This document shows positions 1,819 to 24,772 of a stretch of DNA of 35,059 bases, one piece after another. The notes under the pieces were generated by a model, which was not told where the DNA came from, searched no databases, and saw nothing but the letters and a program-made list of their open reading frames with translations. The position numbers were made by a program, and so were the translations under genes. Origin of the DNA: a virus; UHGV virus genome UHGV-1502588. One strand, 5' to 3'. How positions within the stretch are numbered: position 1 is the first letter of the stretch; the number at the start of each line of letters is the position of its first letter.

Positions 1819-4161
1819 TTAGTTCCCGTACATTCTTAACCCTATTTCTTTAAGGGTATTATTTGCCACACCGTTCGAGTATGTAACTCGCAGGTACATT
1901 GTGTTATCAACGCCTGAGCTAGCCCCCTCTACGGGTAAATATCCTGGCGAAGATGATTGAACATCTGCGGAGACTGACCAGATACCGTCCCCGTTTGCAC
2001 GGGCGGAAACCGATGCCGATAAAAGTACTATAGGGTCTGTTCCATTCCCGTCCACAGCAGACATTGAAATTACATCAATCGTACATACCGAATCCGTAGC
2101 CGCTGCCGCAGCTCCCACACTAAAATCACCGTATGCTGTAAATCCTGAAACAGCGATAGCACCTTCAGGGATCTTATATAAAAAAGTTGCAGTAGCACCG
2201 TTGTTAAATTTCACAGAATTATTAGAATTCCATGATGAAAGAGAAGTAAACGGCGTTCGCAGTATATCCAATGGGCGCAACCACGTAAATTTACGACGCC
2301 ACCCACCAATCGTATTATTGATCAGATACCAGTATTTAATGTTTGCACTGGCTTCGCTTATAGTTATTGAATCCGGCTTGCTCTTAAACCGGTTTCCCGT
2401 TGCATTAGCATTTCTGAAAAACAACTCTTGAAGGCAGTTGGTCGCTTTGATGTTAGAAAACACCGCATACTTACCGGTTACGCCCAGCGCTTGATCGCAA
2501 TTGTTCGCCTCAACCCCATCTATAAAGTTTGGGTTATTTGCATCATTCGTTGTTGCATCGACATAAAATGTACTGACGGCCGATTTAGCATTACCCATTT
2601 TTATGTTTTTAACCAAACAACCTTTGGAGTTGTTGATTAAAATACCTTCGGAGGAAACCGTCCGCCCAAGGTTTGGGACGTTAATATCTCTTATAACGCA
2701 ATCTTCTGTGAAATTAAGCGCCCCAAAACTACCGTTACTGGTGCCCGCGGTCAGTGGTGTTTCAAGGGAGCCCTCTGATATTTCACAATTTGTCGAGTTT
2801 GCAAAGAAAAAGCCAGCGTAATAAGTTCTAACGAGATCGGCTTTAATGACTCGCATATTATGAATTTTCACGTCATAACACGAAGGTGTATTCGGCGTGA
2901 CATCGGAACCCACATTGACACCCTCAGTCCATCCATTGAACACAGGGTTCAGTATTCTGACGTGTTGCGCATTCACGCAGTTAATAGCAAAACCTCCCCA
3001 GTATGTCGGATCGGTATAATATGCTTTTATTACCGGGTTTATGAAATTCACACGCTCAGCCTGAACGAACTGCTGATTATCACGAATATACTGTTTTTGC
3101 GCCGGGTCAGTGAACGCTGCATTAACTATTGAGCCAGGATATGCACCAGACTGGAACAAACTCCATGCCAAATCAAAGTTAAACTCCCGGCTGCTTCCAA
3201 TGATAAAACCACCACGGCCTGTAGTCGCGGAACGAGGATTGATAAACTCCATGGAGCCGCCGCCCACAAACATCACTGTCGTATTCGAATGCGGGAAAAG
3301 ACAAAAATCGACACAGTATTCATCATCAATGATGACCAGCCCACCGCCGTTATCACGTACAGCGTTAAACATTTTCTGGAAACACAATGAATTATCGTGT
3401 GCAAATCCAAGGCCGCCGTTATCTGTATTACCCGCCTTTGCATGAAACATTGCTGGTGTAACCATGTTTTTAACAAGATCAAACAGGTTGCCTGATAACG
3501 GCATGCCAATTAAAGACGTACCAAAATACGCTGCTAATTTTAAAGCGAGATCTGCAGTTTGCGTTTGACCTGCGATAGCAACAGGATCCCCAAAACTATT
3601 AAACCCTAACAGCATCTGCTCGCGAACTTCTACTGGGGGAACCACCCCTACCATCTGCTCAGGAACTCTCAGCACTCTGTTAAGATTCGTTTTTACAGTC
3701 TGACTTACATATTTTTTTGTTGCTGCGTCCTGGTCATTGACAGGGTCAGCAAGGTTTTCGATTCGGTAGCCTTTGGCGTTGAATGGCCCCCCAAAAAAAG
3801 GACGGGTAAGAGCAAACCCAAGATCAATAAACGCGCGCTGGATAGCCATCCAGATACGGTCGAAATCCTTATTGACGGTATCCGCCAGGAGGTCGCCGTT
3901 ATCCTGGTAATCAGTAAGCCGGTATGTCGGTACCACACGTTCGAGCATGACAACCGCACCATTCGCCGGCGGCGTCAGAAACGTAATATCTCCGCCGTCT
4001 TTGTTACCAACGCCGGATACGGTATAGCCGCTGGCAACAACGGAACCATTGATACTTACTTCTAAATCACTGGCGCTGATGATGTAGAATTCGTAAGTAA
4101 ATACGGTTGTCTGTCCGTTGGCCGTATAGATGTTGTAAGGAATTTGGTTAGGTACCGACAT
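1819..4161 (-). CDS. Tail fiber/tailspike: T7 gp17-like N-terminal adaptor domain plus right-handed beta-helix (pectate-lyase-like) capsule depolymerase domain
   Basis: The N-terminal 150 aa (TTVFTYEFYIISASDLEVSINGSVV...DNGDLLADTVNKDFDRIW) follows the T7 tail-fiber N-domain pattern. The remaining 600 aa are Asn/Gly/Ser/Thr-rich with beta-helix repeats. Start chosen at MSVPNQIPYN (GGAG RBS), 18 nt after the terminase stop. Confidence 0.8.
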   Translation of the reverse strand: MSVPNQIPYNIYTANGQTTVFTYEFYIISASDLEVSINGSVVASGYTVSGVGNKDGGDITFLTPPANGAVVMLERVVPTYRLTDYQDNGDLLADTVNKDFDRIWMAIQRAFIDLGFALTRPFFGGPFNAKGYRIENLADPVNDQDAATKKYVSQTVKTNLNRVLRVPEQMVGVVPPVEVREQMLLGFNSFGDPVAIAGQTQTADLALKLAAYFGTSLIGMPLSGNLFDLVKNMVTPAMFHAKAGNTDNGGLGFAHDNSLCFQKMFNAVRDNGGGLVIIDDEYCVDFCLFPHSNTTVMFVGGGSMEFINPRSATTGRGGFIIGSSREFNFDLAWSLFQSGAYPGSIVNAAFTDPAQKQYIRDNQQFVQAERVNFINPVIKAYYTDPTYWGGFAINCVNAQHVRILNPVFNGWTEGVNVGSDVTPNTPSCYDVKIHNMRVIKADLVRTYYAGFFFANSTNCEISEGSLETPLTAGTSNGSFGALNFTEDCVIRDINVPNLGRTVSSEGILINNSKGCLVKNIKMGNAKSAVSTFYVDATTNDANNPNFIDGVEANNCDQALGVTGKYAVFSNIKATNCLQELFFRNANATGNRFKSKPDSITISEASANIKYWYLINNTIGGWRRKFTWLRPLDILRTPFTSLSSWNSNNSVKFNNGATATFLYKIPEGAIAVSGFTAYGDFSVGAAAAATDSVCTIDVISMSAVDGNGTDPIVLLSASVSARANGDGIWSVSADVQSSSPGYLPVEGASSGVDNTMYLRVTYSNGVANNTLKEIGLRMYGN

Positions 4162-4178
4162 AGGGGAAGCTCCGGCGG

Positions 4179-5789
4179 CTAGTAATCTACAGCGACCGAA
4201 ATGTCGCCATCGTATGGCTGCCAATGCTCCCTCGCCTGCGCGGTCGGAATCCCGACTAATTTCCCGATACGTACAGGCGTAGCGCTGATCGCACCGGATC
4301 CAGAATCGATATAGTCGTCTGGCTGGTTAGTTAACGCCGGGTTGAAATCCCGCATCTGGTCGTACATGGGGCCGTCGAGAACGTCGGTATGCGCCCACAG
4401 GAACCGGGACGACAACGGCGCTTCGAATGCATCGAGGATGCGCTTTTGTTTGTTGGTGACGCTGAATTCTTCCCGTACGCCGCAGCCGGTACCCTTCAGC
4501 GCCTGAATAAGCAACTTCCCGGCGAAACTGCCGGGGCCGTTCACTTCTACACATACCAGCGGGATCTGGTACTTCAGCACCAGCTCTTTAATCTGCATCA
4601 CCTGACCGCCGGTGATTTTGTCGTTGTCGTCAAACTCTGCCAGCTCGCCAGTTAACCCCTGGCAAACATGCCAGTAAAGATGCCCGCGGGCGTCGGTGAA
4701 AATAAGGGAAAATGCCGAGGCGTCGGCCTTAACTTTGCCGGTGGCCACATCCCACCAGGCGACAGCGCCGACGATTTGCGTCTGGCCCAGCCACATCGAG
4801 CAGGAACGGTTCGCATAGCGAATTTCAGGCTGGACGTTGTACTCGCGGATACGGTCGGGATCGAGACGAACCTCGCCAACCGGTTTACTGTGCAGCTGGT
4901 ACTGGCTATCCCATTCGTTGACGGTGCGGCACTCTTTACGGCGCAGCAGTAATTCATCATGATCGAAACGGCCTGGCCACGCGCAGCCGGCATAAAAATC
5001 CACGACAGTTTCAGGCGGTGCCGCGAACTCCACACCGTCTTCCGTCAATCGATAATCAGTACCCTCGATCAATAACCGGGCGGCTTTGTGGATCCCCACG
5101 AAAACATATTCCGGGCGGAACGGTATCCGGTATCGTTTTTTGGTTGCCTTCTTCGCTTCGACGCGGTGCTCTTTATCGAATAGCTTTATCGTTAGGCAAT
5201 CGGCGCCCTCTGCTTCTTTCTCGTCGTAAAGGCTATCATGGGTATGCGGCGTACCGATAAACAATTTCCGGCCTCCGGGTATCAAAATATGCGTCTGCTC
5301 GCTTAGGCGATAGCGTAGTTTTTCGCGAGCCTCCGGAGTCTGGATATTGCCGGGCACCTCCACGTCATCATTCTGGCACTCGTTGGCACGGGCGCCGGTG
5401 ACGTTCGACAGAATGCCTTTAGCGAACATGCTGGCGTTACGCATATCCAGCGCGCCGTTTACCCACCATTGCTCGATGGTACCGATGCCGTCCGGCAACA
5501 TGCCTTTCGTCAGAGGGTGATTGCGCAGAACGTTTTGTGTATCGCGGCTGGTCTTTCTGGCAGTTGTATCGGATTCCGACTGATGCAGAATACGGTACTG
5601 GCGATCGCAGTAATACCGCCAGGCGTTATAAACGCCCAGGATAGTTGATTTACCAAAGCCACGAAAACAGCGAAGCACCGCGAGGTTTCCGCGATGCTCC
5701 AGCCAGTGGCAGGCTTTATAGTGGCAGTCCGGCACATCCCAGTTCATCCGTTCTGCCCACATCAAAAAGAAGGCCAGGAACGAAATCAT
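4179..5789 (-). CDS. Terminase large subunit, T7 gp19-like (DNA maturase B)
   Basis: LRCFRGFGKSTILGVYNAWRYY...ILHQSESDTTARK parallels T7 gp19 LQAFRGIGKSFITCAFVVW...ILIVSASKERAD (Walker A). IGTPHTHDSLYDE parallels LGTPQTEMTLYKE. The ATGA overlaps the upstream small gene. Confidence 0.85.
   Translation of the reverse strand: MISFLAFFLMWAERMNWDVPDCHYKACHWLEHRGNLAVLRCFRGFGKSTILGVYNAWRYYCDRQYRILHQSESDTTARKTSRDTQNVLRNHPLTKGMLPDGIGTIEQWWVNGALDMRNASMFAKGILSNVTGARANECQNDDVEVPGNIQTPEAREKLRYRLSEQTHILIPGGRKLFIGTPHTHDSLYDEKEAEGADCLTIKLFDKEHRVEAKKATKKRYRIPFRPEYVFVGIHKAARLLIEGTDYRLTEDGVEFAAPPETVVDFYAGCAWPGRFDHDELLLRRKECRTVNEWDSQYQLHSKPVGEVRLDPDRIREYNVQPEIRYANRSCSMWLGQTQIVGAVAWWDVATGKVKADASAFSLIFTDARGHLYWHVCQGLTGELAEFDDNDKITGGQVMQIKELVLKYQIPLVCVEVNGPGSFAGKLLIQALKGTGCGVREEFSVTNKQKRILDAFEAPLSSRFLWAHTDVLDGPMYDQMRDFNPALTNQPDDYIDSGSGAISATPVRIGKLVGIPTAQAREHWQPYDGDISVAVDY
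4242..4259 (-). promoter_or_regulatory. Late-unit motif copy B (TTAGTCGGGATTCCGACC), inside the 3' end of terL, about 85 nt 5' of the tailspike start
   Basis: Conserved 18-mer; see findings. Confidence 0.5.
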
Positions 5790-6133
5790 TTTTTGCCTTT
5801 GTGTTGCAGCCTCTCGATGACTTCCAGCGCTTTACGCTCAGCAGCTGCTACTTGCTGACCTAACTGGAACGCTTCATCGTCCGGATCTTCTCCGCCGGGC
5901 TTCGGCGTTCCTCCGCGAGTATGCATACCAATTAGTGAATGGACTTTTACCAGCAGGGTTAGCGATGCGGCCGCATTCTTCTTATGCCAGTACCGATCGC
6001 CGCGTTCCTGTTTGGTGTGCTTTGTGATTTCCTTCCCTGCCCCCGGCCAGTTGTCCGGATCGGCTTCTTCCAGAACTACATCTGTGAGCTTATCGCTAAG
6101 AGCAGTAAGGCGAGTTTTGTAATCTGAATGCAT
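5786..6133 (-). CDS. Putative terminase small subunit (positional equivalent of T7 gp18)
   Basis: 115-aa ORF translationally coupled (ATGA) to terL. No confident sequence signature, so the call is by synteny. The start codon is abutted by a hairpin plus U6 with no SD. Confidence 0.45.
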   Translation of the reverse strand: MHSDYKTRLTALSDKLTDVVLEEADPDNWPGAGKEITKHTKQERGDRYWHKKNAAASLTLLVKVHSLIGMHTRGGTPKPGGEDPDDEAFQLGQQVAAAERKALEVIERLQHKGKK

Positions 6134-6162
6134 AAAAAAGCCCCGTAGTTATCCATAGGGCT
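6134..6162 (-). terminator. Hairpin plus U6 element on the minus strand, directly abutting the terS start codon (terminator, attenuator or processing site)
   Basis: Minus strand reads AGCCCTATGGATAACTACGGGGCTTTTTTATG: a 5-6 bp stem, 14-nt loop and T6, then ATG. Confidence 0.4.
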
Positions 6163-6180
6163 ATGATGTATTCTTTCAAA

Positions 6181-6198
6181 GGTCGGAATCCTGACTAT
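6181..6198 (-). promoter_or_regulatory. Late-unit motif copy C (ATAGTCAGGATTCCGACC), 5' of the hairpin and terminase genes
   Basis: Conserved 18-mer. It lies between the moron and terS. Confidence 0.5.
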
Positions 6199-6214
6199 CA
6201 CAAGGAACATTAGA

Positions 6215-6736
6215 ATGAAAAAACTCATCCCATTATTGCTAATTTTTCCCTTTACTGCCTCTGCCTCCACAGATTTAATTGAGGATTCAGGATATATCGT
6301 CCCAATATCAGGCCCAGGAATACAAATTACTAACCCGTACACTGACTATAAGGTCATTAGCGGTATCGATAACGGTAAAAAAATTGTACTAAATGTGTCA
6401 GTATTAAACCTACGTTCCTACAAGGAGAATGCAGACCTAAGCGAATCTAATAAAAATTATGCGGAAGGAAGTAAAACTGTATTCAGTTACGGCGATAACG
6501 CTTACACAAAGGATTTTATAAAATTCTCCTCGGAAGCAGCTATAAATTCGACAAAAGAAGACCTAAAAAAATTATATTGTACGCCTGATGGTATTTACCC
6601 TATGTCCTCACAGGAGAGACTATTCTACGAAGCACGGAAAGAACATAAGACAATAATGCTCAATTACTACAGTGATTCAGGAAAAACCCTCATATTTGGG
6701 TTTGGGGTTTCTCCAGAATCATGTAAATCGAAATAG
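6215..6736 (+). CDS. Moron: secreted/periplasmic protein of unknown function, AT-rich, on the opposite strand to the virion operon
   Basis: N-terminus MKKLIPLLLIFPFTASAST is a classical Sec signal peptide with an AxA site. RBS AAGGAAC. The GC content is clearly lower than its neighbours. Its stop TAG directly abuts the stop (CTA) of the convergent internal virion protein gene. Confidence 0.7.
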   Translation: MKKLIPLLLIFPFTASASTDLIEDSGYIVPISGPGIQITNPYTDYKVISGIDNGKKIVLNVSVLNLRSYKENADLSESNKNYAEGSKTVFSYGDNAYTKDFIKFSSEAAINSTKEDLKKLYCTPDGIYPMSSQERLFYEARKEHKTIMLNYYSDSGKTLIFGFGVSPESCKSK

Positions 6737-9631
6737 CTATCGCATACCGGGGTCTACCTGGTTAATCAGCGGCGCAATCCAGAACAGATTATTACCTGGT
6801 AACAGCGTACGCACGCTATGCAGCACTCGGTCGCCGGCGTCGCCATTGAGCACGCCTGCGGTTACATCGGTAACGGTATCCAGCAGGCCAAAGGTTGGCC
6901 CCAGAGCAGAACCGATAAAGCCACGGCTGGCGTAACGGGACTGCGTACCTGTGCCGAGTAATGGCCCTAACCCTATCATCCCGCCGGATGCCTTTTCCGC
7001 CATGTTGTTATATTCCATCAGCGGGCCAATGATACCAGAACGGTCTATACCCTCGAGTACCATCTTCTGCGGCGTCAAATCAACCTCCCGGCCGTTCGCC
7101 GCCTGCTTAAGCGCATAGGTCAAGGAGCCCAGACCAATCTGGAAGGCTGTGCCGTAATAGAACTGCGCGGTACCTTCCTGCAAACCGCCCAACGTCGCGC
7201 GGTTATAGGATGCCGTAGCAAAAGACTTAAACTGGAATACAGTTTTCCCCAGCGGGGTACTGGCCCACAGCGGCGTATCACCGATCCCCGGCGTGATAAC
7301 GGTATTGTTTACATCCTTCAGCACAGCAGATTGCAGCAGGCCAGCGGCGTACTGGTCATCCCATTTTTCGAAATTGCCGATATGCCAGCCCTGAATAACT
7401 TCGCCGTGCTTCTGAAATTCTCGCTGGATGCGTTCGGCCATCTTCTCGTTGATGCCGAGTTTTGCCAGGCGCTTCGCAGGGAACGCGCCGGACAGAATAC
7501 CGTCGGACGTGATCATGCCATTCACCGATTTGTTCATATCGTCAAAGTGGCCCATCATGGTCAGCTTGCCGAACACATCGGTAATACGTTCCATGCCAGC
7601 TTCTGCAGCTGTCATACGTGAAGAGCTATCGACCAGATCCCCCATCGTGCGTGCGCGGGTATGCAGTATAGTTTCCAGCCCAACGGCCATTTTCTTCTGC
7701 TCCGCCCGGCTGGCGAGATAAGCCGGCGAGCGGGTGATCAGTGCGCCATATCCACGCATGGTATTGCTGAAGCCGTTAACCATCATGCCGCGCGCCAGAT
7801 CCGGGATAGCGGATACCGTCATGCCGCCGAGTTTCGTTACAAAGTTAGCGCTACGCAGGAAAGCACCAGCACGAACGAAAAATGATGATGGGTCATCCGG
7901 TATACCGTAGGTACCAACGAGGCGATCGCGAAGCGCCAGAATATCGCGCAGGTCGGCTTCACGTGCTTTCGCCAGCTTTTCCTGTTCCGCCGGGCGTAAA
8001 CGCATTAGCGCGTCGTACTCGTCCTGGATGGCGGCGAGCTGCGAATCCAGCGACTTGTTGCCAAAGGTGCGGGTTAATTCGATTTCTGCCGAGGCTTCGC
8101 GGATATGACGCTGCAGGACGTAGTTAGCGTCGCTCTCCAGATAATCTTTCATCAGGCGATCGGGAACGCTCAACGTACGCGATTTAGTGCTGCCCGGCGC
8201 TTTCACCATAAAGACGTTGGCGAACTCCTGCGGAATTTTGGCCCCAACGATACGGTTGATAGTGGTATCGGCGGCGATTTCGGCATCTTCGCGGGACATG
8301 GTTTTCTCACCGCGTGACCACCAGTCAACCAGCATGTTGCGGAATTTATCGCGCTCGCTAACGATTTTCCCTACCTTGTACACGCGTGGGAAATAGCTGG
8401 TCTGTCCCATCGCTTTCAGTTCGGCATCCGGCGGAAGTAAGCCCAGTTCCTGCTGTGCTGTCTTCACGCGGTTAATGACTGTACGCATTGCCTGCGCCGC
8501 TTCCTGCACTTTCGCATTGACGTGCACGTCGCCGTTGCGCAGCGCCTCGCCAACCTGTTCACGGAAGGCCGTATAACCCAGATCACCGCCTTCGGCTTTG
8601 TACTGGGTGTATGCCTGCTTATTCGCAGTAACGACGGCCGCCTCTTCGCGGCGCCAGCCACGTACGCGCGTCTCAGCTGCAACCGGCGTTTCAATACCGC
8701 GCAGGTTGCCTTCCAGCGTGAAGTTATTCTCTGCCAGTTCCAGCGCTGTCCGGCGCGCTTCTTTTGATGGGGATTCCATCAGGCGGGTGATCGGCGTCAG
8801 ATAGCTACCGGCTTTTTTAGCTAGTTTGCCGAGTGGGCCGCCAGACACTGGCGTGAGATCTTCCAGTGTAGCTTCGCGAATACGCATAGCACCGACGCTG
8901 CCACCGTTCGGTAAGGTATCCGCCAGGGCGTCGGCCGCGTTGTTAATCGTTGGCGAGGCGTTCATATTATCGAGCGCCTCTGCCACTTCACGGGTGGCCG
9001 CATTTCTTACCGACGGGGTGATCATCGTGCCAGCAGTGGCAAATACACCGCTGAGAAGTGCGCCGGCAGTAATGTGTGCGGCGCTCTCCCTGGCTGTTCT
9101 GGTGTACTGCTCGTTATTGAGCGCAACCTCGCTAAGTGCGGTACCAGCGGCACCAATAGCAACCTGAGAACCAATACGCACAGCCAGGCTTCCCTGCGCA
9201 CCGGGGATAAACATCGATGCGACTGTGACAGGATCGATAACCCCGGCGGCTATACTGGCTAAAGTTCCTTCGGCACCTGCTTCAGACAGCACCCGGCGGT
9301 CTTCGTTTTCATCGTCTATCTGGTTTTTAATCCAGGCGGTTTCCTCTGGGGATTGTGAATCCGCAAAGGCGGATCCCCATTGTTCGTACCCCTTTAGTTC
9401 GTTTTTATCAGAATAAGGGTTATACCCCTCCGCCGGCTCAAACTGTTTAGCCGGGCGGAACATCCCGGCGAGCAGGTTATTCTGACGAAAAGCGGCATCC
9501 CATACAGACGGTTGTTGCTGCTGTGGCTCCGGGTTAGTTCCTTCAGGCAGAGATACATCAAAACCAGTTGGTGCCTGAAGAGCATTATCCATTACGCTCG
9601 GCGGAACATCAGATTGCGGATAGATAGGCAT
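6737..9631 (-). CDS. Internal virion (ejectosome) protein, T7 gp15/gp16 class
   Basis: 964-aa protein in the gp15/16 position of the T7-like module. Its start overlaps the upstream stop by 1 nt (TAATG). Gln/Ala-rich N-terminus. Confidence 0.6.
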   Translation of the reverse strand: MPIYPQSDVPPSVMDNALQAPTGFDVSLPEGTNPEPQQQQPSVWDAAFRQNNLLAGMFRPAKQFEPAEGYNPYSDKNELKGYEQWGSAFADSQSPEETAWIKNQIDDENEDRRVLSEAGAEGTLASIAAGVIDPVTVASMFIPGAQGSLAVRIGSQVAIGAAGTALSEVALNNEQYTRTARESAAHITAGALLSGVFATAGTMITPSVRNAATREVAEALDNMNASPTINNAADALADTLPNGGSVGAMRIREATLEDLTPVSGGPLGKLAKKAGSYLTPITRLMESPSKEARRTALELAENNFTLEGNLRGIETPVAAETRVRGWRREEAAVVTANKQAYTQYKAEGGDLGYTAFREQVGEALRNGDVHVNAKVQEAAQAMRTVINRVKTAQQELGLLPPDAELKAMGQTSYFPRVYKVGKIVSERDKFRNMLVDWWSRGEKTMSREDAEIAADTTINRIVGAKIPQEFANVFMVKAPGSTKSRTLSVPDRLMKDYLESDANYVLQRHIREASAEIELTRTFGNKSLDSQLAAIQDEYDALMRLRPAEQEKLAKAREADLRDILALRDRLVGTYGIPDDPSSFFVRAGAFLRSANFVTKLGGMTVSAIPDLARGMMVNGFSNTMRGYGALITRSPAYLASRAEQKKMAVGLETILHTRARTMGDLVDSSSRMTAAEAGMERITDVFGKLTMMGHFDDMNKSVNGMITSDGILSGAFPAKRLAKLGINEKMAERIQREFQKHGEVIQGWHIGNFEKWDDQYAAGLLQSAVLKDVNNTVITPGIGDTPLWASTPLGKTVFQFKSFATASYNRATLGGLQEGTAQFYYGTAFQIGLGSLTYALKQAANGREVDLTPQKMVLEGIDRSGIIGPLMEYNNMAEKASGGMIGLGPLLGTGTQSRYASRGFIGSALGPTFGLLDTVTDVTAGVLNGDAGDRVLHSVRTLLPGNNLFWIAPLINQVDPGMR

Positions 9632-12345
9632 TATTCATTGCTCCATGAAAAGTAGTTTTTAACCCGGTTCATACGGTCATCGTGCAAACGCTGATATTGT
9701 TCATCGAGCGCACGGTGTTTTTCCTTAAAGCCTCGAATATCTTTCCCGTGTGATATTTCCTCTTCGCCTTGCTGTTCCCGCTCCTGCTGCATTTTTTTAT
9801 ACGGCTCCCAGTCTTCCAGCGACGGCTTCCAGCGCAAAGGACGGCCAAATTTATCGTTATACAGCTGAACCTTCGGAATCCCATTCTCATCTTTAGAGCG
9901 TATAACTATTGAGTACATCCCATCCCGAGGGGTCATTACATCCGGGGTTATTTCCAGTTCTCCACCGATACGCGATTCTGGGGTACTTGATGTAATAACA
10001 GGCGCTGAGCCTGAGGTAATTCCTAGTTGGGTCGGACTGGTTTCAATTATTTCTCCACGGTCGCCATAAGTCAGACGCTCTTTTTCTTCTTTCCACTGAG
10101 CAGCCTGCCACCCTGAGGGGCCATAGTTATAAAGCGCTTCAGGCGCATATTTCATAAGCTGGGCGCTGCCATTTACATCGCTAAGACTCCAGGTGCGCGC
10201 GATCTGGGTATTGGTCATCTTTTTGGCAATATCAGCATTACCACCTGAATTGCGATAATTAATGTCATAAAGTGACTGGTAGTCATTACGGAATTTTACA
10301 GTATCAGGATTCTGGTCATCCGCGGCGGGGCCGCCAAAGCTGTACCACGGTTTCATGCTGCTGACTGCGGAATCCATTGCGCTATCACGCTCTTTTCTAT
10401 ATTCCTTCGTGCTCTGCGTAGAAGACAATTGCGATTTCAGGGCGTCAGTCTGGTTGTAGGTCACGTTCTGCGCCTGTTTCACCGCTTCGTCTGACGCCAT
10501 ACCGGAGTCGGTAAGCTGTTTAACGGTCAGGTAAAAGCTTTGCATATCCTTTGGCATATCGCCCACAGAGGCTGGATCTGTTTCGTACAGAGCGTTAAAT
10601 AAGGTCGAGCCCTGCTTCACCACATCGGGACTGCTGGAGCGGGCGATCGCATTCAGTTGTGATGTAACTTGCGATGGGATAATGCCCGTCTGGTTAACTT
10701 GCTGCACGATAGCGTCGTGAGTGGTGGCGTCGTTAATGCGGAAGTTAAGCGCCGATGGCGTATTGTCCGCCGCCTTCTGCATGGATTTGTTGCTCGGGTC
10801 GAGTTTCTCGCCGGAGATCAGCGCGTCGTTAAAGCGGGCGGAATCACGCTGCGCCTGAATATTGGCGTTGCTCTTCTGCACCAGCGCACTAAGTTTGCCA
10901 TACGCATCGAGTTTCAGTGCGTAATCCGGGTCGTTTGCCTGCGGCTTCACTTTCGCCAGTTCGGCCTGCTGTTCTGCCGGGGTGACGTACTGGATAGCCT
11001 GGAAGGTTCTGGCGTTATCGATCGCGATATCCAGCTGCTTGATGATAGCCTGCCCTTGTTCGCCATATCCTCGCATTATTGTATCGGCGTTGAGCATAGC
11101 CTCTGGTACTTCGCCATTATATAACTGCGCAAAATTGTTATTGAGAATCGGGTCAATCTGCTGGCGCAGTGCCGTACGCTGCTGGCGGATCTGCGATTCG
11201 GCGATATTGTCGATTTTGTTTACTGCTACCGGGTCGAGACCAGTTTTATTTTTGTTGTAACGGGAAAGCCAACCACGCGTTTCGGCTGGCAGCTGCTTAA
11301 CGAAATCCGCCATTGAGATTTCGCCTTTGCGCGGGTCGCCAACTTTAGCGATCAGCTTATCGACGTTACCCATACCCCAGTTATATGCAGCACCGGCCAG
11401 CGTTTCAGACTGATATTTTTTACTGAGCTGCCCGGCATAATCGCGCGCCAGCTGCGCATGCTGCACAGGGTCGTCCGGGTTGTACTCCACGCCACGTTTA
11501 GACGCCAGTTCTTTCCCGGTGTCCGGCATCAACTGAAATTCACCCTGCGCGCCCGCGGGGGATGTAACAAGGCTACCATCTGCATTGCGGTGCTTGCCGC
11601 CAGATTCCACCAGGCCAACGGCGCGCATATCAAGTTCGCCGGTGCTGCTGTTGACCAGCGTAAAATCGCCATTAAGCCAGCCGGTGGGATTGGTTACTGC
11701 GTAGTTCTGCGCGCGCTGCTCAAGCGCTTTTTGGTTCGCTTCTGAGACCGCACCATCGATGCGCTCCTGTGACCAGCCGCGCGCCTGGCCATACATCTCG
11801 ATCGAGTGTTTCCGGGCGCTGCGTATTAGCCCGGCCTGCATCGGGTTATCGTAGGCACTGGCCTCCTGTTCAACTGAAGATGTCACCGTCGCGTTAAGCT
11901 GCTGGCGCTGGGCTTCCTCAGTCTGCGCACGCTCGAAACCGCTATAGGTGCTTGTCCGGCGTACCTGCCCCGCTTTCCACTGTGCATCAAAATAGTTTAA
12001 CTGGCTGGGCGGCACGCGCTTGCGCGCTTCCTCGTAATCGCCAGCGTCGGCCTTATCCATATCGGCGACCACACCGGACGATTTAAAGCCCTGACGCGTG
12101 ACCGTGGCGCCCGTCTCCGGGTTTTCCCAGCGGTCATTAGATTTAGCTTCCAGATCGGTCAGAATAGCCTGCGTGGCCGCTACGTCGGCTTTATCCTGTC
12201 GGCGCTGTTCCAGATCAGCAGCTTCGCCTAATGCCACACCCGCGCCAGAAATTGCATTGCCAATGGCGCCAACGTTGCTGACTGCCACCCGGTTTTGCTG
12301 CGCCTGCGGCGTTACATTGCCGAAATTTCCAGTTGGTATTCTCAC
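9631..12345 (-). CDS. Internal virion protein with a lytic transglycosylase (SLT) domain, T7 gp16-like function
   Basis: The central segment GEFQLMPDTGKELA...AAYNWGMGNV is SLT-like (E-x-G, LMQ/LMP and AYN motifs). 904 aa. GTG start directly after the upstream TAA, with a GGGGG SD. Confidence 0.65.
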   Translation of the reverse strand: MRIPTGNFGNVTPQAQQNRVAVSNVGAIGNAISGAGVALGEAADLEQRRQDKADVAATQAILTDLEAKSNDRWENPETGATVTRQGFKSSGVVADMDKADAGDYEEARKRVPPSQLNYFDAQWKAGQVRRTSTYSGFERAQTEEAQRQQLNATVTSSVEQEASAYDNPMQAGLIRSARKHSIEMYGQARGWSQERIDGAVSEANQKALEQRAQNYAVTNPTGWLNGDFTLVNSSTGELDMRAVGLVESGGKHRNADGSLVTSPAGAQGEFQLMPDTGKELASKRGVEYNPDDPVQHAQLARDYAGQLSKKYQSETLAGAAYNWGMGNVDKLIAKVGDPRKGEISMADFVKQLPAETRGWLSRYNKNKTGLDPVAVNKIDNIAESQIRQQRTALRQQIDPILNNNFAQLYNGEVPEAMLNADTIMRGYGEQGQAIIKQLDIAIDNARTFQAIQYVTPAEQQAELAKVKPQANDPDYALKLDAYGKLSALVQKSNANIQAQRDSARFNDALISGEKLDPSNKSMQKAADNTPSALNFRINDATTHDAIVQQVNQTGIIPSQVTSQLNAIARSSSPDVVKQGSTLFNALYETDPASVGDMPKDMQSFYLTVKQLTDSGMASDEAVKQAQNVTYNQTDALKSQLSSTQSTKEYRKERDSAMDSAVSSMKPWYSFGGPAADDQNPDTVKFRNDYQSLYDINYRNSGGNADIAKKMTNTQIARTWSLSDVNGSAQLMKYAPEALYNYGPSGWQAAQWKEEKERLTYGDRGEIIETSPTQLGITSGSAPVITSSTPESRIGGELEITPDVMTPRDGMYSIVIRSKDENGIPKVQLYNDKFGRPLRWKPSLEDWEPYKKMQQEREQQGEEEISHGKDIRGFKEKHRALDEQYQRLHDDRMNRVKNYFSWSNE

Positions 12346-12813
12346 TTAAGCCCCCTGCTTTGTTTTCCAGCCGTTATACGCTTTGGCACCACCCGACAAT
12401 AAAGAGCTGCCAGCGTTGATATAGCCGGCAGTTGCTGCGTTATTTCCACTGATGCGGTCAGCCTGCGCCTGCGATTGCAGACGGTTAGACGAATTCACGC
12501 CATTAAGGATCGTCTGGTAGGCGTCCTGTTCGGCGTCTTCAGTAATGCCAGAGGTGATACGCAGCGCGGTACCTTCGCCAGTTTCAACACCCGACGCCGC
12601 CAGCGAAGCGTTAGCCGCTGCGGCCTGTTCACGCCCGGCTTTACGGATACGGTCGGCTTCCACCCTTGCGGCTTTCTGACTCGCCTCTGCATCAGCTTCC
12701 GCCTGTGCTGCCTGATAGTTCGCCATTTTTTTCTGCTGCTGTCCGCTATACGCTGCGCCGCCAGCGGCTAACACCGTGGACGCCACCAGGGCAATTTCTA
12801 CGCCAGTGCACAT
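12346..12813 (-). CDS. Internal virion protein B, T7 gp14-like
   Basis: The N-terminus MCTGVEIALVASTVLAAGGAAYSGQQQKKM parallels T7 gp14 MCWAAAIPIAISGAQAISGQNAQAKM. Ala/Gln-rich. Confidence 0.6.
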   Translation of the reverse strand: MCTGVEIALVASTVLAAGGAAYSGQQQKKMANYQAAQAEADAEASQKAARVEADRIRKAGREQAAAANASLAASGVETGEGTALRITSGITEDAEQDAYQTILNGVNSSNRLQSQAQADRISGNNAATAGYINAGSSLLSGGAKAYNGWKTKQGA

Positions 12814-12815
12814 TG

Positions 12816-13268
12816 TTAAACCTCCATCGAATAAAGCAGGCCTGTTTGCTGCAGGCCGAGACGCGAATACAACTGGCCGGTGCGTTCAGCGTGCACGCCA
12901 GTGGTGATCCCCATGTTGATAACGGCGGCGCCGTGCTCTTTTGACCAGTCAATAAACGCGCGTGCCAGTCGCGGCCCGGCGCTGCCGCCCCGATGTTCTG
13001 GCGCGACAAATAAGCCGTATTCGAAGGCCATCAACTGGCGGGAAAAAAACTGCTCGGCAATACCGCCGCCAAGCCAGCCGATAACCTGCCCGTCTTTTTC
13101 GGCGACCAGTACGCAACCAGACGGCGAATAAATCAGGCTTTGCGCCAGTTCTGCGCATTTATCCGCATCAAACGGCGAGTTTTGCGAGTAACGGGACTCG
13201 AGATACATCCGGGTTCCCAGCTCGATAAGCACCGGAATATCCCCGGCAGTGGCGTTACGAATCATCAT
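12816..13268 (-). CDS. GNAT-family N-acetyltransferase in the gp13 position of the virion operon
   Basis: MMIRNATAGDIPVLIELG ... VIGWLGGGIAEQF ... FEYGLFVAPEHRGGSAGPRLARAFIDWSKEHG has the GNAT fold signature (acetyl-CoA pyrophosphate-binding R-x-x-G-x-G/A loop). The ATG overlaps the stop of tail tubular protein B (TAATG). Confidence 0.7.
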   Translation of the reverse strand: MMIRNATAGDIPVLIELGTRMYLESRYSQNSPFDADKCAELAQSLIYSPSGCVLVAEKDGQVIGWLGGGIAEQFFSRQLMAFEYGLFVAPEHRGGSAGPRLARAFIDWSKEHGAAVINMGITTGVHAERTGQLYSRLGLQQTGLLYSMEV

Positions 13269-15262
13269 TAGCCCCCGTTGCTGGTAAAGACGATGACAAT
13301 GGCGAGAAGATGGAACGGCAGCGGCTGGCGCTGCTGAATAGTCAGCGAGTCTTCTCCGCGCTCCCAGCCTAATTTTCCCCAGTAGTGATCGCCGGTGAAT
13401 AAAGGCGCCGGCTGGTTGAGGATTTTTGGCCCGAACGTGCGGAACGGGATCACCTGGCCGTTGCACTCGGCGCCAGTGGTTTCGAGGAAACGCATAGTGA
13501 CTTCACTTGTGCGCTTGCGGGTGTTCTGCGTGGTGCCTTCAGACGTAGCGACTTCAGGCGTCAGCGTGGTAATAGTCGTTTCAAAATGCAGGCCGATTTC
13601 GACTTTGTAGGCTTTGCGCGAAAGCGTGATTTGGCCGGATGATACGACCGCCTGCGGCATCACAGAGCCGTCTGCAACGATATCAACGGTCTCGCCTTCG
13701 AGGTGCGACAGGCCGCCCCATGTCGTTGCTCCAGCATCGCTGGATCCCGTCACGGCTGCATCGGTGTACAGGGCGCTGCTGAGCATTTCTACATAGCGAA
13801 CGGTCTGGCCGTTGACCGTACGGCGCACAATGGCGTACACCACATCGTCAGTCGCTGAGGGAATAGTCGCTACGGACTCAAACGCACCACTGGTGATCTG
13901 TCGTGACCACGCGACAACGTTCTGCGCCCGGTCGATAGCCATCGTCACCATTACGCCATCATTGCGAACCAGCCAGGTAAACGCATCAGGTTGCTGCTGA
14001 TACGCCATATCGATCACACCGCCTTCTGTGATGTGTTCCGCCAGTACAGTCATATCGTTGGCCGAGTAAGCTACATAGCTGTCGGGGTCATAGGCGACAG
14101 CGTAGAGCTTACGGCCAGAACGCTGGACGAACATAATTTCGGTACCGACGCGTACCGGGCGGATCCCGTTGCATCCGTACGGACTGGGATTTTTTACTGA
14201 AATATTGGTAGGCGTAATCGCCGCATCGTTACCAGCGGTGATGGTGAACTCGCCGCCGTACGTCAGCGCAATTAGCGTATTCATCTGCGCGAGGTGCACA
14301 ATCGGGTTGAGCTGGTCAGAAGACAGCGTAAAGCTGATCGCGTCGTCGTCATCGGTTCCCAGCTCGAAAGAGAGGTATACGCCCGATTCGCTCCACCAGA
14401 TAGTTTGCGGATACTGTGGCGAACCGGCCAGAACCAGCCGCTGCTGGTAAAGCGTTACCGCGCCCGGGTATCCAAATTCATCCGTCCAGACGGAATCCTC
14501 GCGAGTCCAGGCGCCCGGTGATGCCGCCTGAGTTGCGCTTAAATCGGTGCGAATGGTACCGACGGCGACCTGCGCACTGGCCACGCTCTTAATCAGCACC
14601 AGACCGCTGTTAATCCTGACGTACGAGCCCACATCTTCAGGCACCCAACCATCACCAGTAAACGGCGGTGGGTCTTCGCTACCTTCTGGCGGTTCGTCAT
14701 CGCTCAGGGTCAGCGTTATTTCCGAGCCGACGAATTCTTTTACCGATGGCTTGCACCATTTCTGCGGCGTGTCACGTACTTCGTCGAAGGGTTCAACGAT
14801 AAACGGCGCTGGTTCCAGTACCCAATCGGTTTGCCCGCGTCTCTGCAGGCGATGCGGTTTAACGGCCTGATGCACCAGAAACATGGTATCAGCGCCCTGA
14901 ACGTAATTTACCGATGGCAACATGTCAGAGGTGTACGGGCTGGCGATTTCGTACGGCGTGTTGTCTTCGTTCACCAGCTGCTTACCGTCCTGGTAAATTC
15001 GCAGATAGCCGTCGCCAAACTCCAGAATGTAAGCCTGCGTGCGGTTGAAAACGTACGGAATGAGGCGGGATTTTTTGTCGCCGTATTTTGCGGCCGCTAC
15101 GAACTGCGAGCCGGGGCGGCGCATTACCCCGCCCTGTACCACGACCACACTATTTTCCAGCGTCTTCGCGCCATTCGCATAGCGATCGATATCAACGCGC
15201 CCCATAAGACGCGGGGAAATTTCGCCGGCGGTGAAGTTTGTTTTAATCAGATTGGCGCGCAT
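13268..15262 (-). CDS. Tail tubular protein B (T7 gp12-like, nozzle)
   Basis: About 665 aa, in the gp12 position, coupled (TGAcATG) to the gp11-like gene. The start is ambiguous: 15298, 15280 or 15262, and I favour 15262 (GAGG RBS, no overlap). Confidence 0.6.
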   Translation of the reverse strand: MRANLIKTNFTAGEISPRLMGRVDIDRYANGAKTLENSVVVVQGGVMRRPGSQFVAAAKYGDKKSRLIPYVFNRTQAYILEFGDGYLRIYQDGKQLVNEDNTPYEIASPYTSDMLPSVNYVQGADTMFLVHQAVKPHRLQRRGQTDWVLEPAPFIVEPFDEVRDTPQKWCKPSVKEFVGSEITLTLSDDEPPEGSEDPPPFTGDGWVPEDVGSYVRINSGLVLIKSVASAQVAVGTIRTDLSATQAASPGAWTREDSVWTDEFGYPGAVTLYQQRLVLAGSPQYPQTIWWSESGVYLSFELGTDDDDAISFTLSSDQLNPIVHLAQMNTLIALTYGGEFTITAGNDAAITPTNISVKNPSPYGCNGIRPVRVGTEIMFVQRSGRKLYAVAYDPDSYVAYSANDMTVLAEHITEGGVIDMAYQQQPDAFTWLVRNDGVMVTMAIDRAQNVVAWSRQITSGAFESVATIPSATDDVVYAIVRRTVNGQTVRYVEMLSSALYTDAAVTGSSDAGATTWGGLSHLEGETVDIVADGSVMPQAVVSSGQITLSRKAYKVEIGLHFETTITTLTPEVATSEGTTQNTRKRTSEVTMRFLETTGAECNGQVIPFRTFGPKILNQPAPLFTGDHYWGKLGWERGEDSLTIQQRQPLPFHLLAIVIVFTSNGG

Positions 15263-15263
15263 G

Positions 15264-15827
15264 TCAGAACCTCGATTCATACGTTGGGTAGCCGCCAAGC
15301 TCTTCCGGTGGGTCTTCCTGACCGTCCACGGCCTTTGCCTGCTTCAGCAATACCAGCGATTCCTGGGCGAGACTGTCGCGCAGACTGGTAGAGCCAGTGA
15401 CGGCATAGGCCAGCTTTGCCTGCATCATCATTTCTGCCACATCAACGAGCGCGGCATCCCAGGTGGATTCGTCTTCGTTGCGGAACACATAACGCAGCTT
15501 CAGTACCTGCACATTCGCCAGTAGCCGGTTGCCTTCGACGCGGTACGGAATATCGTCGCAAGGTTCCCCAACGGACAAGACGCGAAGAAGATCACCGGGT
15601 AGCGCGAACTGAAAGCGGAAACCGAATACCGGTGCTGTACTGACAGGAGAGAGAACCACACGTTTTACAACGCAGTTCCACGGATGCGCGCGCAGCAGCT
15701 TATTGCGTACAGTGGGATAAAGGTTTGAGCACAGACGGGCGTGATCGGTGTTTTCGTCGAAACTGTTAATCGGGTGAGCACCGAGCGCCAGCAGTGCGTT
15801 AGAGCAGATAGAAATACTGTCAGCCAT
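15264..15827 (-). CDS. Tail tubular protein A (T7 gp11-like, adaptor)
   Basis: The N-terminus SNALLALGAHPINSFDENTDHARLCSNLYPTVRNKLLRAHPWN parallels T7 gp11 [42 protein letters not shown]. 187 aa. Confidence 0.7.
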   Translation of the reverse strand: MADSISICSNALLALGAHPINSFDENTDHARLCSNLYPTVRNKLLRAHPWNCVVKRVVLSPVSTAPVFGFRFQFALPGDLLRVLSVGEPCDDIPYRVEGNRLLANVQVLKLRYVFRNEDESTWDAALVDVAEMMMQAKLAYAVTGSTSLRDSLAQESLVLLKQAKAVDGQEDPPEELGGYPTYESRF

Positions 15828-15886
15828 AGCCTTACCTCAGATGAAAAAAGGCCGGGAGATATCCCCCGGCAAAGGCACCAGCGGCT

Positions 15887-16964: not shown

Positions 16965-16992
16965 ATAAAAAAGCCAGCGGGTTAGGCTGGCT
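16964..16992 (-). terminator. Rho-independent terminator (minus strand) after the 89-aa gene
   Basis: Minus strand reads AGCCAGCCTAACCCGCTGGCTTTTTTATTT: a 7-bp stem followed by T6. Confidence 0.65.
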
Positions 16993-17010
16993 TAGTTCGC
17001 GAGGGATTAT

Positions 17011-22863: not shown

Positions 22864-23029
22864 ATACTCGCTTCAGAACTATCCATAAAACAAAGGGCAC
22901 TATCCCGGTAATAATGGCTAGTCCGGTACCAGCACAAAAAGTAATTGCATTGGCGTTATCAACCTGGCTGGTTATGTACCACCAAAATATAAAGTTAAAT
23001 GGAATCCAGAAAGGCCAAAATATACTCAT
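22856..23029 (-). CDS. Small hydrophobic membrane protein (2 TM, Trp/Phe-rich)
   Basis: Starts MSIFWPFWIPFNFIFWWYIT. The ATG overlaps the Dam stop (ATGA). Confidence 0.45.
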   Translation of the reverse strand: MSIFWPFWIPFNFIFWWYITSQVDNANAITFCAGTGLAIITGIVPFVLWIVLKRVYG

Positions 23030-23859
23030 GCTGCACACTCCTGTTTCTGCTGTGCTGCCGGGTTAAGCCAAAGGCACTCTGTACGAACTTTGGTACCCCG
23101 CCCTGCGCTGATGCGCGAAGTTTTCTCCGTTTTTGCCCAGCCGGTCAGCATGTCGTTGTAGACCTCGGTGTCATAACCGCTAATCATCACCATGCCTGAC
23201 ATTGTTCTGGCCACAGCAAGCAATTGCTCATGACCTTCAAGAGTCATTTCATGTGCGTAGTAACGATTACCCTGTACGCGAGTTTCCGGCACATACGGCG
23301 GATCGATGTAGTGCAGAGTTGTTTCTGCATCGTGGGCGCGCATTACCGCCAGAGCATCTTTGTTCTCGATAATGACTCCCTGAAGACGCTGGCAGACAGC
23401 CGCCAGATTGGCCGGGTAGCGCTCCCAGAGGTGAGCCGCAGTAGCGTATTTTCGTTTGCTGTCGCTACGGAATCCGGACTGACCGCCGACGCCAGCAGCA
23501 GAACCAAACCCCATACAGGCACGAACAACCATGCGGCGGGCACGTTCGATAGAATCTGTCGCTGGCTCCTGAGCGTGACAGAACTCATCTCGTGAGTACG
23601 GGGTCAGGCAGCAGGCATCCTGCAGGCGCTGGTTTAATTCAGAGTCACGCAGTACACGAAACAGGTTCACAACTTCGCCGTCGAGGTCGTTGTACACCTC
23701 TGAATAGCTGCGAGGCTTCTGGAGTAATACACCAGCAGCGCCGCCGAACGGCTCCACATAGCAGACGTGATACGGCATTTTCTCGATTATCCACGGTGCC
23801 AGGCGGAATTTACCACCGTGATAACGAATCGCAGGATGTTTGATGTTTTTAGCAATCAT
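23026..23859 (-). CDS. DNA adenine methyltransferase, Dam family (N6-adenine, DPPY class)
   Basis: Motifs FGGAAGV (AdoMet binding) and HYIDPPY (catalytic DPPY). N-terminal YHGGK. 277 aa. Confidence 0.85.
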   Translation of the reverse strand: MIAKNIKHPAIRYHGGKFRLAPWIIEKMPYHVCYVEPFGGAAGVLLQKPRSYSEVYNDLDGEVVNLFRVLRDSELNQRLQDACCLTPYSRDEFCHAQEPATDSIERARRMVVRACMGFGSAAGVGGQSGFRSDSKRKYATAAHLWERYPANLAAVCQRLQGVIIENKDALAVMRAHDAETTLHYIDPPYVPETRVQGNRYYAHEMTLEGHEQLLAVARTMSGMVMISGYDTEVYNDMLTGWAKTEKTSRISAGRGTKVRTECLWLNPAAQQKQECAA

Positions 23860-24038: not shown

Positions 24039-24629
24039 CTATGCCACCTCCCCAATAAATTCCGCAATGCCCGGCAGCAGCGCCACCGCAGGCGATTCAC
24101 ACTGATTGCCCCAAACATCAAAACCGTGCGACGACTGCCGCGCGAATAACTCAATACGGGGAACGTCGCCCAGCAGCTGCACCAGCATTTCGCGCACGTA
24201 GTCGGGTTTTCTGGAATGCTCGAGCCGCGGCGCCGTGAAAGACTGGATGATCCCGGCATCCAACCGGGCAGGAAGATTCCCCTTCACAGCAAACAAGCAA
24301 TCTTCGCTGTTTGCGCGCGTCATATGTCCCATTCCCATAACGAGCTTGTCGGTCTGCCGGCTTCCGCACTTATTCCAGGTGAATCCCTTCATTGTCATGA
24401 GACGGAAACCCCATGCCTCGATCACCTTCAGAGCCTCGAGCGGCATCGTCGGTACCCACCACATAGCCAGCAGGCAGTTTTCGGCGGCCAGTTCCCACAC
24501 TGGCAAACGGCAGATATCCAGTAGGGTCATGGTCTGATATTTATGCCCGGCGCCACGTTTTCCATCGTTGGCCTTATCGCGGTATGTCCACGGCGGATCA
24601 GCGTATATCAGGGTGTATTTTTGGTTCAT
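24039..24629 (-). CDS. MT-A70 family N6-adenine DNA methyltransferase (DPPW class)
   Basis: MNQKYTLIYADPPWTY carries the DPPW catalytic motif near the N-terminus. Start chosen at M5, which has an SD. Confidence 0.8.
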   Translation of the reverse strand: MNQKYTLIYADPPWTYRDKANDGKRGAGHKYQTMTLLDICRLPVWELAAENCLLAMWWVPTMPLEALKVIEAWGFRLMTMKGFTWNKCGSRQTDKLVMGMGHMTRANSEDCLFAVKGNLPARLDAGIIQSFTAPRLEHSRKPDYVREMLVQLLGDVPRIELFARQSSHGFDVWGNQCESPAVALLPGIAEFIGEVA

Positions 24630-24772
24630 GCAGCCACCCATTCAATCAGGGAGCAGCCAGCCCATAACACAGCTAAAATAGCCAACCAGCCAATTACGTT
24701 AACTAATGCCGCGAACCAAAGCAGAGTGCGGCGGCTGTAATGCTCAATATCTCGTTTAAAAAAATTCTTCAC
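24626..24772 (-). CDS. Possible 48-aa membrane protein (GTG start), not in the ORF track
   Basis: GGGAGA SD 7 nt 5' of the GTG. One TM helix (LLWFAALVNVIGWLAILAVLWAG). The stop overlaps the MTase ATG (ATGA). Confidence 0.3.
   Translation of the reverse strand: MKNFFKRDIEHYSRRTLLWFAALVNVIGWLAILAVLWAGCSLIEWVAA

Follow-up and report, generated by a model that had tools for sequence, protein, structure and literature searches.

The DNA analysed here is the 35,059-nucleotide virus genome UHGV-1502588 (its whole length is called the window), and it carries, at positions 12816-13268 on the minus strand, a gene for a small acetyltransferase of the GNAT family, placed among genes for virion proteins at the position of gene 13 in T7-like phages. 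The question raised by this locus is whether such a GNAT is an unusual insertion that has taken the place of gp13, as an earlier reading made from the letters alone (the sequence-only reading) had supposed, or is itself the gp13 of this phage. The best explanation overall, and one that we consider likely, is that the GNAT is internal virion protein A (IVP-A), the equivalent of T7 gp13 and ε15 gp13, and that its gene is the first of the internal virion protein (IVP) operon. A GNAT in this slot is an ordinary and already published arrangement; what is new is one more acetyltransferase-family IVP-A of podovirus ejection-protein operons, the kind itself being known.

The GNAT fold was borne out by profile searches and structure prediction alike. 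The 150-residue protein matched Pfam Acetyltransf_1 (PF00583) with E 2.8e-12 and a score of 47.4 bits, the cut-off being 20.7, and Acetyltransf_7 (PF13508) with 35.2 bits against 27; its full length was also covered by a match to the PHROG family phrog_1249, annotated 'acetyltransferase' (E 2.9e-48; residues 1-149 aligned with profile positions 8-156). An AlphaFold2 model built with 28 homologues (predicted local distance difference test, pLDDT, 95.9; predicted template modelling score, pTM, 0.90) has its elements in the GNAT order β1-α1-α2-β2-β3-β4-α3-β5-α4-β6(-β7), and in a Foldseek search of this model against the PDB every match was a GNAT, with template modelling (TM) scores of up to 0.86 (PAT, YncA, 4j3g). 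In the translation, motif A, the pyrophosphate-binding loop for acetyl-CoA, reads R93-G-G-S-A-G98 (12975-12992, minus strand), and it aligns to the RGGGIG of PDB 4j3g; the R/Q-x-x-G-x-G/A pattern is thus present, but with Ser in place of the Gly at i+3. Down to 30% identity in the family, R93 does not vary and the conservation of G94 is at least 90%. The motif B segment, L133-Y134-S-R-L-G138 (12855-12872, minus strand), places Y134 at the usual position of the general-acid tyrosine; this residue is conserved in most members, and G138 is invariant. A profile search for the GNAT subfamily, which the sequence-only reading had proposed, returned the generic GNAT match but no placement in a named subfamily. 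No NCBIfam equivalog came near its cut-off (AAC(3)-I 21.5 bits against 200, RimI 20.4 against 86.4, ArsN1a 18.5 against 170), and the nearest solved structures in the PDB sequence search and in Foldseek were small-molecule amine acetyltransferases (PAT/YncA, AAC(3)-I, ArsN and DpA) at about 20% identity. Assignment to AAC(3)-I, PAT/YncA, RimI, ArsN or DpA was therefore rejected, since the similarity to each in NCBIfam, the PDB sequence search and Foldseek was generic and far below threshold.

The reading frame was confirmed at the coordinates first proposed, where no strand had been given; it runs from 13268 to 12816 on the minus strand, encodes 150 amino acids plus a stop, and begins MMIRNATAGDIPVL. 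It lies immediately 3' of the gene for the nozzle or tail tubular protein B, the T7 gp12 equivalent (13268-15298, minus strand, 676 amino acids; PF25675 Phage_nozzle E 3.1e-8, phrog_376 E 4.8e-221), and immediately 5' of the gene for an IVP-B-like small internal virion or ejection protein, the T7 gp14 equivalent (12346-12813, minus strand, 155 amino acids; phrog_418 'internal virion protein' E 9e-40). Two genes for large IVPs then follow, namely a 904-residue, IVP-C/D-like protein with a lytic transglycosylase (SLT) domain (9631-12345, minus strand; PF01464 E 1.1e-9, phrog_1044) and a 964-residue, IVP-D-like protein (6737-9631, minus strand; phrog_342 'internal virion protein with endolysin domain' E 9e-193). 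The translational coupling that had been noticed between the tail tubular B gene and the gp14-like gene was also upheld, both by the sequence and by the Pfam and PHROG calls of the neighbours: the nozzle stop TAA (13270-13268) overlaps the first GNAT ATG (13268-13266) in a TAATG at 13266-13270, and the GNAT stop TAA (12818-12816) is 2 nucleotides ahead of the ATG (12813) of the IVP-B-like gene. A second in-frame ATG, at 13265-13263, corresponds to the start site of most homologues (149 amino acids), and a putative Shine-Dalgarno-like GGGGG (13272-13276, minus strand) stands 3 nucleotides before the first ATG and 6 before the second. No promoter-like site was seen near the gene, nor a terminator of its own, and its GC content is uniform with that of the flanks. 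A terminator-like hairpin within the reading frame (13074-13052) sits in coding sequence (the FF codons), and since 21 such hairpins were found against 17.9 expected by chance, it is within the chance number.

The slot is kept well beyond this one prophage. The order portal … capsid, adaptor, nozzle, GNAT, IVP-B, 904-residue IVP, 964-residue IVP was found in all 80 of the 80 loci recovered from IMG/VR (79-99% identity), and the same GNAT slot occurs in three E. coli prophages that do not share a related replication module (RepO/DnaB in one, a VapE primase with a DNA polymerase in another); homologues are thus present at this locus in related prophages. Such a prophage was found in only 3 of 5,426 complete E. 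coli genomes, and the sole isolated relatives in the phage collection are the Yersinia phages YeP4-6, with a GNAT 65% identical in the same slot. Genomes of Klebsiella, Citrobacter, Enterobacter, Serratia, Yersinia, Pectobacterium and others are named as sources of near-identical GNATs. At about 30% identity the gene occupies the same slot in Alcaligenes phage Piluca, Acinetobacter phage TPWB-05, Roseobacter phages SIO1 (gp26.2, Zobellviridae) and CRP-810, and Pseudoalteromonas phage vB_Pun_Y3, and Alteromonas phage ZP6 also carries a GNAT in the slot after tail B (PMC8515928).

Selection and inheritance point the same way. The median pairwise ratio of non-synonymous to synonymous substitution (dN/dS) was 0.074 for the GNAT, against 0.058 (IVP-B), 0.080 (adaptor) and 0.094 (capsid), so that purifying selection on the GNAT is as strong as on its structural neighbours, and none of 77 unique sequences was a disrupted copy. 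Across the mosaic relatives, divergence from the window copy of the GNAT correlated with that of IVP-B (Spearman rho 0.86) and of the 904-residue IVP (0.78), but not with that of the nozzle (0.20) or that of the adaptor (0.19); as the loci are not independent of one another, these correlations are a rough measure. Since the divergence of the GNAT follows the IVP genes and not the nozzle, the gene is inherited as part of the IVP module. One IMG/VR contig (L083, 8195-9118) was considered as a natural truncation of the gene and was rejected as such: it is an in-frame deletion fusion, in which the N-terminal ~170 residues of the DnaB-like helicase are joined to GNAT residues ~19-150, every gene from the helicase through the nozzle being gone. 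The contig is either a decayed prophage that has undergone a large internal deletion or a chimera of assembly, and is uninformative on function.

Equivalence to gp13 has been argued in the literature for relatives of this gene. Hardies et al. (2016) described an acetyltransferase-family gene in this slot in many podoviruses, with the T7 IVP-A included, and treated IVP-A as a nonstructural IVP assembly protein (PMC4819975). Bischoff et al. (2019) equated the cobavirus GNAT with T7 gp13 (PMC6775973), and the RefSeq record of ε15 notes an HHpred GNAT hit for gp13, which lies between the tail protein gp12 and the IVP gp14. T7 gp13 itself belongs to PF11090 (Phage_T7_Gp13) and phrog_308, and it had no GNAT match in the Pfam scan. 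Nonetheless, an AlphaFold2 model of its family (first sequence 97% identical to T7 gp13; pLDDT 94.3) has the topology β1-α1-α2-β2-β3-β4-α3-β5-α4-β6-β7, and the top 50 of 50 matches of this model in the PDB were GNATs (RimI, PA4794, Ard1, SpeG and others; best E 2e-5); as modelled, the T7 gp13 family has the GNAT fold. The position in the gp13 slot, proposed from the start, is confirmed by the gene order here and in the relatives. Since position, fold, partial profile similarity and published analysis all agree, 'GNAT' and 'gp13' are unlikely to be alternatives, and the idea that one had replaced the other gives way to their being, in all probability, the same thing (PMC4819975, PMC6775973, the ε15 RefSeq note and the gp13-family model).

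The partial profile similarity deserves a closer look, as it is here that most of the points against this equivalence are found. Shallow profile comparisons between the window GNAT family and T7 gp13 were not significant. An exhaustive profile search widened the gp13 family to 238 representatives, and hhalign, run with a 136-sequence gp13 alignment, then matched the two families with a probability of 83.8% and an E of 7.9e-6, the match being confined to the N-terminal 63 columns. At the level of hidden Markov models (HMMs) there is no bridge between gp13 and the GNATs, as PF11090 was matched by 136 of the 136 gp13 relatives and Acetyltransf_1, weakly, by one, and the window GNAT did not reach PF11090 in the Pfam scan. 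The links of ε15 gp13 are weak in both directions (PF11090 E 0.009; window GNAT family by hhalign E 1e-3, probability 21%). P22 gp14 (DUF2824), which Hardies et al. count together with ε15 gp13 as very standard IVP-A homologs (PMC4819975), aligned by hhalign to the motif A/B region of the window GNAT family without significance; its profile search against the PDB returned repeat-protein artefacts ('Cake' designs) and a PseH match at E 0.11, and its comparison with the deep gp13 profile was negative. Because the GNAT fold is very common, the gp13 slot could have been filled by independent recruitment. It is also to be noted that we found in the literature neither an experiment on any member with a canonical GNAT, the morphogenesis role being carried over from the very divergent T7 gp13, nor virion proteomics for such a member, and that the nearest structures, being small-amine acetyltransferases, give no pointer to a protein substrate. 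Such points count against the assignment of the window GNAT as IVP-A. In the same searches, five giant proteins of 1,600-5,800 amino acids (P0286, P0302-P0304 and P0312) matched the T7 gp13 profile through 10-26 repeated stretches, covering profile positions ~12-73 only; such stretches are either an array of repeats that looks like gp13's N-terminal half or an artefact of low complexity.

As IVP-A, the GNAT would be transcribed late with the virion genes, to which it is translationally coupled. T7 gp13 is needed for infectious particles and does not remain part of the virion, which is known for T7 only (Kemp et al. 2005, as related in PMC4819975). By analogy, the window GNAT would most likely do its work within the infected cell, as a morphogenesis factor that does not belong to the virion (PMC4819975), and it may be needed for the functional assembly of the ejection proteins IVP-B, IVP-C and IVP-D that are encoded just downstream. 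Whether chemistry could be involved is a question for the motifs. In the T7 gp13 family the position of the P-loop is free to vary, the RLSGKA of T7 not being conserved, and the motif B Tyr is replaced by Phe. The window family, unlike T7 gp13, has kept both the RGGSAG loop for acetyl-CoA and the tyrosine of motif B, and it is therefore probably still an enzyme. It may be speculated from these residues that the T7 type of IVP-A has probably lost catalysis while the window type has kept it, and that the window GNAT probably binds acetyl-CoA and transfers the acetyl group; as to the target, the simplest guess, equally speculative, would be one of the co-expressed internal virion proteins.

A wider version of this idea takes in GNATs that are located elsewhere. 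In SP6, K1-5, Aeromonas phage HJG, Pseudomonas phage Nerthus and Rhizobium phage Paso, a phrog_1249 GNAT closes the series of DNA-metabolism genes and is immediately followed by one or two small reading frames and then the portal gene, and the phrog_1249 profile is matched by SP6 gp28 and the HJG protein as well as by those of YeP4, SIO1 and Piluca. The gp13 slot is empty in SP6, K1-5 and Nerthus, where the gene for tail tubular B adjoins or overlaps that for IVP-B; LUZ19 has the same layout, with a pre-portal GNAT (Rac, gp28) and an empty slot. The regions in question are L092 485-3616 (SP6), L093 979-4004 (LUZ19), L099 715-3806 (Nerthus), and L100 631-1158 and 5926-9050 (K1-5). In phages with a gene in the gp13 slot (T7, the window prophage, SIO1, Piluca and others) no pre-portal GNAT was seen. 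The slot gene and the pre-portal GNAT thus look mutually exclusive, and this complementarity, in four genomes, suggests that the pre-portal GNATs of the SP6 gp28 type, and perhaps Rac, are displaced equivalents of IVP-A. In its full form the idea would hold that IVP-A proteins were ancestrally, and still are in the window lineage, active acetyltransferases; that acetyl transfer is a required maturation step of the DNA-ejection machinery; and that the SP6-, K1-5-, Colwellvirinae- and phiKMV-type pre-portal GNATs, possibly including Rac, are displaced IVP-A orthologues. The acetyl group might then go to the N-terminus, or to lysines, of the ejection proteins translated together with the GNAT. 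We regard this combined proposal as unlikely.

Other functions can be imagined for such a protein, one of them after the example of Rac. The gene for Rac, a GNAT, immediately precedes the first structural gene of LUZ19, and the acetyl-CoA site of the protein is needed for the cleavage of the alpha subunit of the host RNA polymerase (PMC7552054). The window GNAT could likewise acetylate a host protein late in infection, shutting down or redirecting the host or countering a defence, its place in the operon reflecting timing only; the SP6-type members of phrog_1249 share the pre-portal slot with Rac, and the window family retains the catalytic motifs. However, Rac belongs to phrog_3986 and has only a generic match to phrog_1249 (E 4.9e-4), and direct homology between the window GNAT and Rac was rejected because there was no hhalign match and the PHROGs differ, which leaves an analogy only. 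The Rac activity is specific to the genus Phikmvvirus, even among phiKMV relatives (PMC7552054), and the window prophage has no phage RNA polymerase that would gain from a shut-off of the host enzyme. Moreover, co-inheritance with the IVP genes and a slot kept from Alpha- to Gammaproteobacteria hosts fit a partner intrinsic to the virion better, so that a host-directed enzyme is in our estimate quite improbable. For a role in defence in particular, a PADLOC search found nothing in support. A second possibility, raised in the sequence-only reading, is that the protein is carried in the capsid core, is delivered with the ejection proteins and acts at the start of the next infection. Its gene does head the ejection-protein operon, and the historical name of T7 gp13 is 'internal virion protein'; yet T7 gp13 is reported not to stay part of the virion (Kemp et al. 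2005, as related in PMC4819975), the slot protein of phiRIO-1 is absent from a complete virion proteome (PMC4819975), and our literature search turned up no report of a phrog_1249 member detected in particles by proteomics. Packaging with the core thus gained no support, and we would give it little chance; nor does an early-acting effector, as had also been suggested, suit a gene that lies within the late virion operon and before which no promoter of its own was seen.

The remaining alternatives would detach the gene from the virion altogether. As a moron or lysogenic-conversion cargo gene, it would encode a small-molecule acetyltransferase of the aminoglycoside, phosphinothricin or polyamine type that benefits the host, which is what the nearest structures (AAC(3)-I, PAT/YncA, ArsN, DpA) and the weak NCBIfam matches to the same groups would suggest. 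Those scores are far under their cut-offs, however, and the gene co-inherits with the IVP genes. The uniform GC content, the lack of a promoter or terminator of its own, the translational coupling at both ends and the conservation of the slot in lytic phages of distant hosts make a moron or resistance gene very unlikely. A GNAT toxin of a toxin-antitoxin pair (TacT/AtaT/ItaT type) has fold and size in its favour and nothing else: there is no adjacent antitoxin-like reading frame, the neighbours being virion genes, and the GNAT had no PADLOC match and no TacT/AtaT-like match in the PDB or NCBIfam. The sequence-only reading had already doubted a toxin for want of a partner gene, and we agree in giving it virtually no credence.

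With the GNAT taken as IVP-A, the rest of the window can be described briefly. The window represents a temperate podovirus whose virion module is T7-like and which is integrated in an enterobacterial genome of the Klebsiella type. Its minus strand encodes a T7-type portal, capsid, adaptor, nozzle, IVPs, the N-domain of a tail fibre, and TerL; the window further encodes replication genes of the DnaB/RepO type, two DNA methyltransferases and an integrase. The methylases lie near each other in the early region, one a Dam-like N6-adenine methylase of the D12 class (23026-23859, minus strand) and the other of the MT-A70 family (24039-24641, minus strand), and they probably serve the prophage against restriction. 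Directly after the major capsid gene (15851-15870, minus strand) and just upstream of it (16971-16993, minus strand) there are strong hairpins that resemble terminators and carry T-runs. Hairpins so placed are the usual attenuator arrangement, which raises capsid mRNA relative to that of the downstream tail and IVP genes. The sole sizeable plus-strand reading frame within the minus-strand virion operon, of 173 amino acids (6215-6736), is placed between a small TerL-adjacent reading frame and the gene for the 964-residue IVP and had neither a Pfam nor a PADLOC match; a related E. coli prophage (L004) has another, different small plus-strand gene at the equivalent place (11343-11735), and the site is a candidate moron locus. 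The tail fibre (1819-4224, minus strand) retains the T7 gp17-type N-terminal adaptor domain, and its receptor-binding part is swapped among relatives (compared at L004 7031-9220 and at L005 7202-9703 plus 6034-7137): the region carries a sialate O-acetylesterase in one E. coli prophage, and a different fibre followed by an acyltransferase family gene in another.

The assignment as IVP-A matters mostly for how such genes are read. GNATs beside the tail and ejection genes of podoviruses have repeatedly been described as auxiliary metabolic, regulator or possible resistance genes (PMC11288001, PMC8515928), and in one case an annotation as FadL had to be corrected (PMC6775973). As IVP-A or gp13 equivalents in the virion-assembly module, such small GNATs ought not to be marked by prophage surveys as cargo or as resistance genes. 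Because the intact acetyl-CoA site is under strong purifying selection, lineages such as that of the window are a natural place in which acetylation in the assembly of the ejection apparatus can be tested. To our knowledge, nobody has yet explained what T7 gp13 and the P22 gp14-type factors do biochemically. If the combined proposal made above were true, the gp13- and gp14-type morphogenesis factors would be tied to a defined chemistry and linked to a known host-shutoff acetyltransferase, and the displacement of IVP-A to the pre-portal place would explain why the phages that have them 'lack gp13'.

Finally, the window GNAT may be set beside the systems that resemble it. Among them are the phrog_1249 proteins in the same slot (those of YeP4-6, SIO1 gp26.2, cobavirus pc40, Piluca gp44, TPWB-05 and CRP-810 gp40), in which the order of tail B, GNAT, small IVP and large IVPs is as in the window. 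They share with it the full-length PHROG match and the conserved motifs, and have been read as IVP-A or gp13 equivalents (PMC4819975, PMC6775973), although they are 30-65% identical and come from other hosts and virus families (e.g., Zobellviridae). T7 gp13 occupies the same slot between tail tubular B (gp12) and IVP-B (gp14) and is of similar size (138 against 150 amino acids), but it is in phrog_308 instead of phrog_1249, and the promoter phi13 stands in front of gene 13, whereas no promoter-like site was seen before the window GNAT. P22 gp14 (DUF2824, PF11039; phrog_651 'head morphogenesis') and ε15 gp13 are proteins of ~150 amino acids encoded between the tail-hub or needle genes and the first ejection protein. 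The SP6 gp28 and K1-5 gp27 type of the Autographiviridae (Molineuxvirinae, Colwellvirinae) falls in the same phrog_1249 (E 9e-52), with 27-35% identity over the full length, and differs in location, being pre-portal and not after tail B. Rac of LUZ19, the only phage GNAT of comparable placement whose function has been studied (PMC7552054), shares with the window protein its being a small phage GNAT adjoining the virion module, in a genome whose gp13 slot is empty; it differs in its pre-portal place and in a similarity that is at the generic GNAT level.

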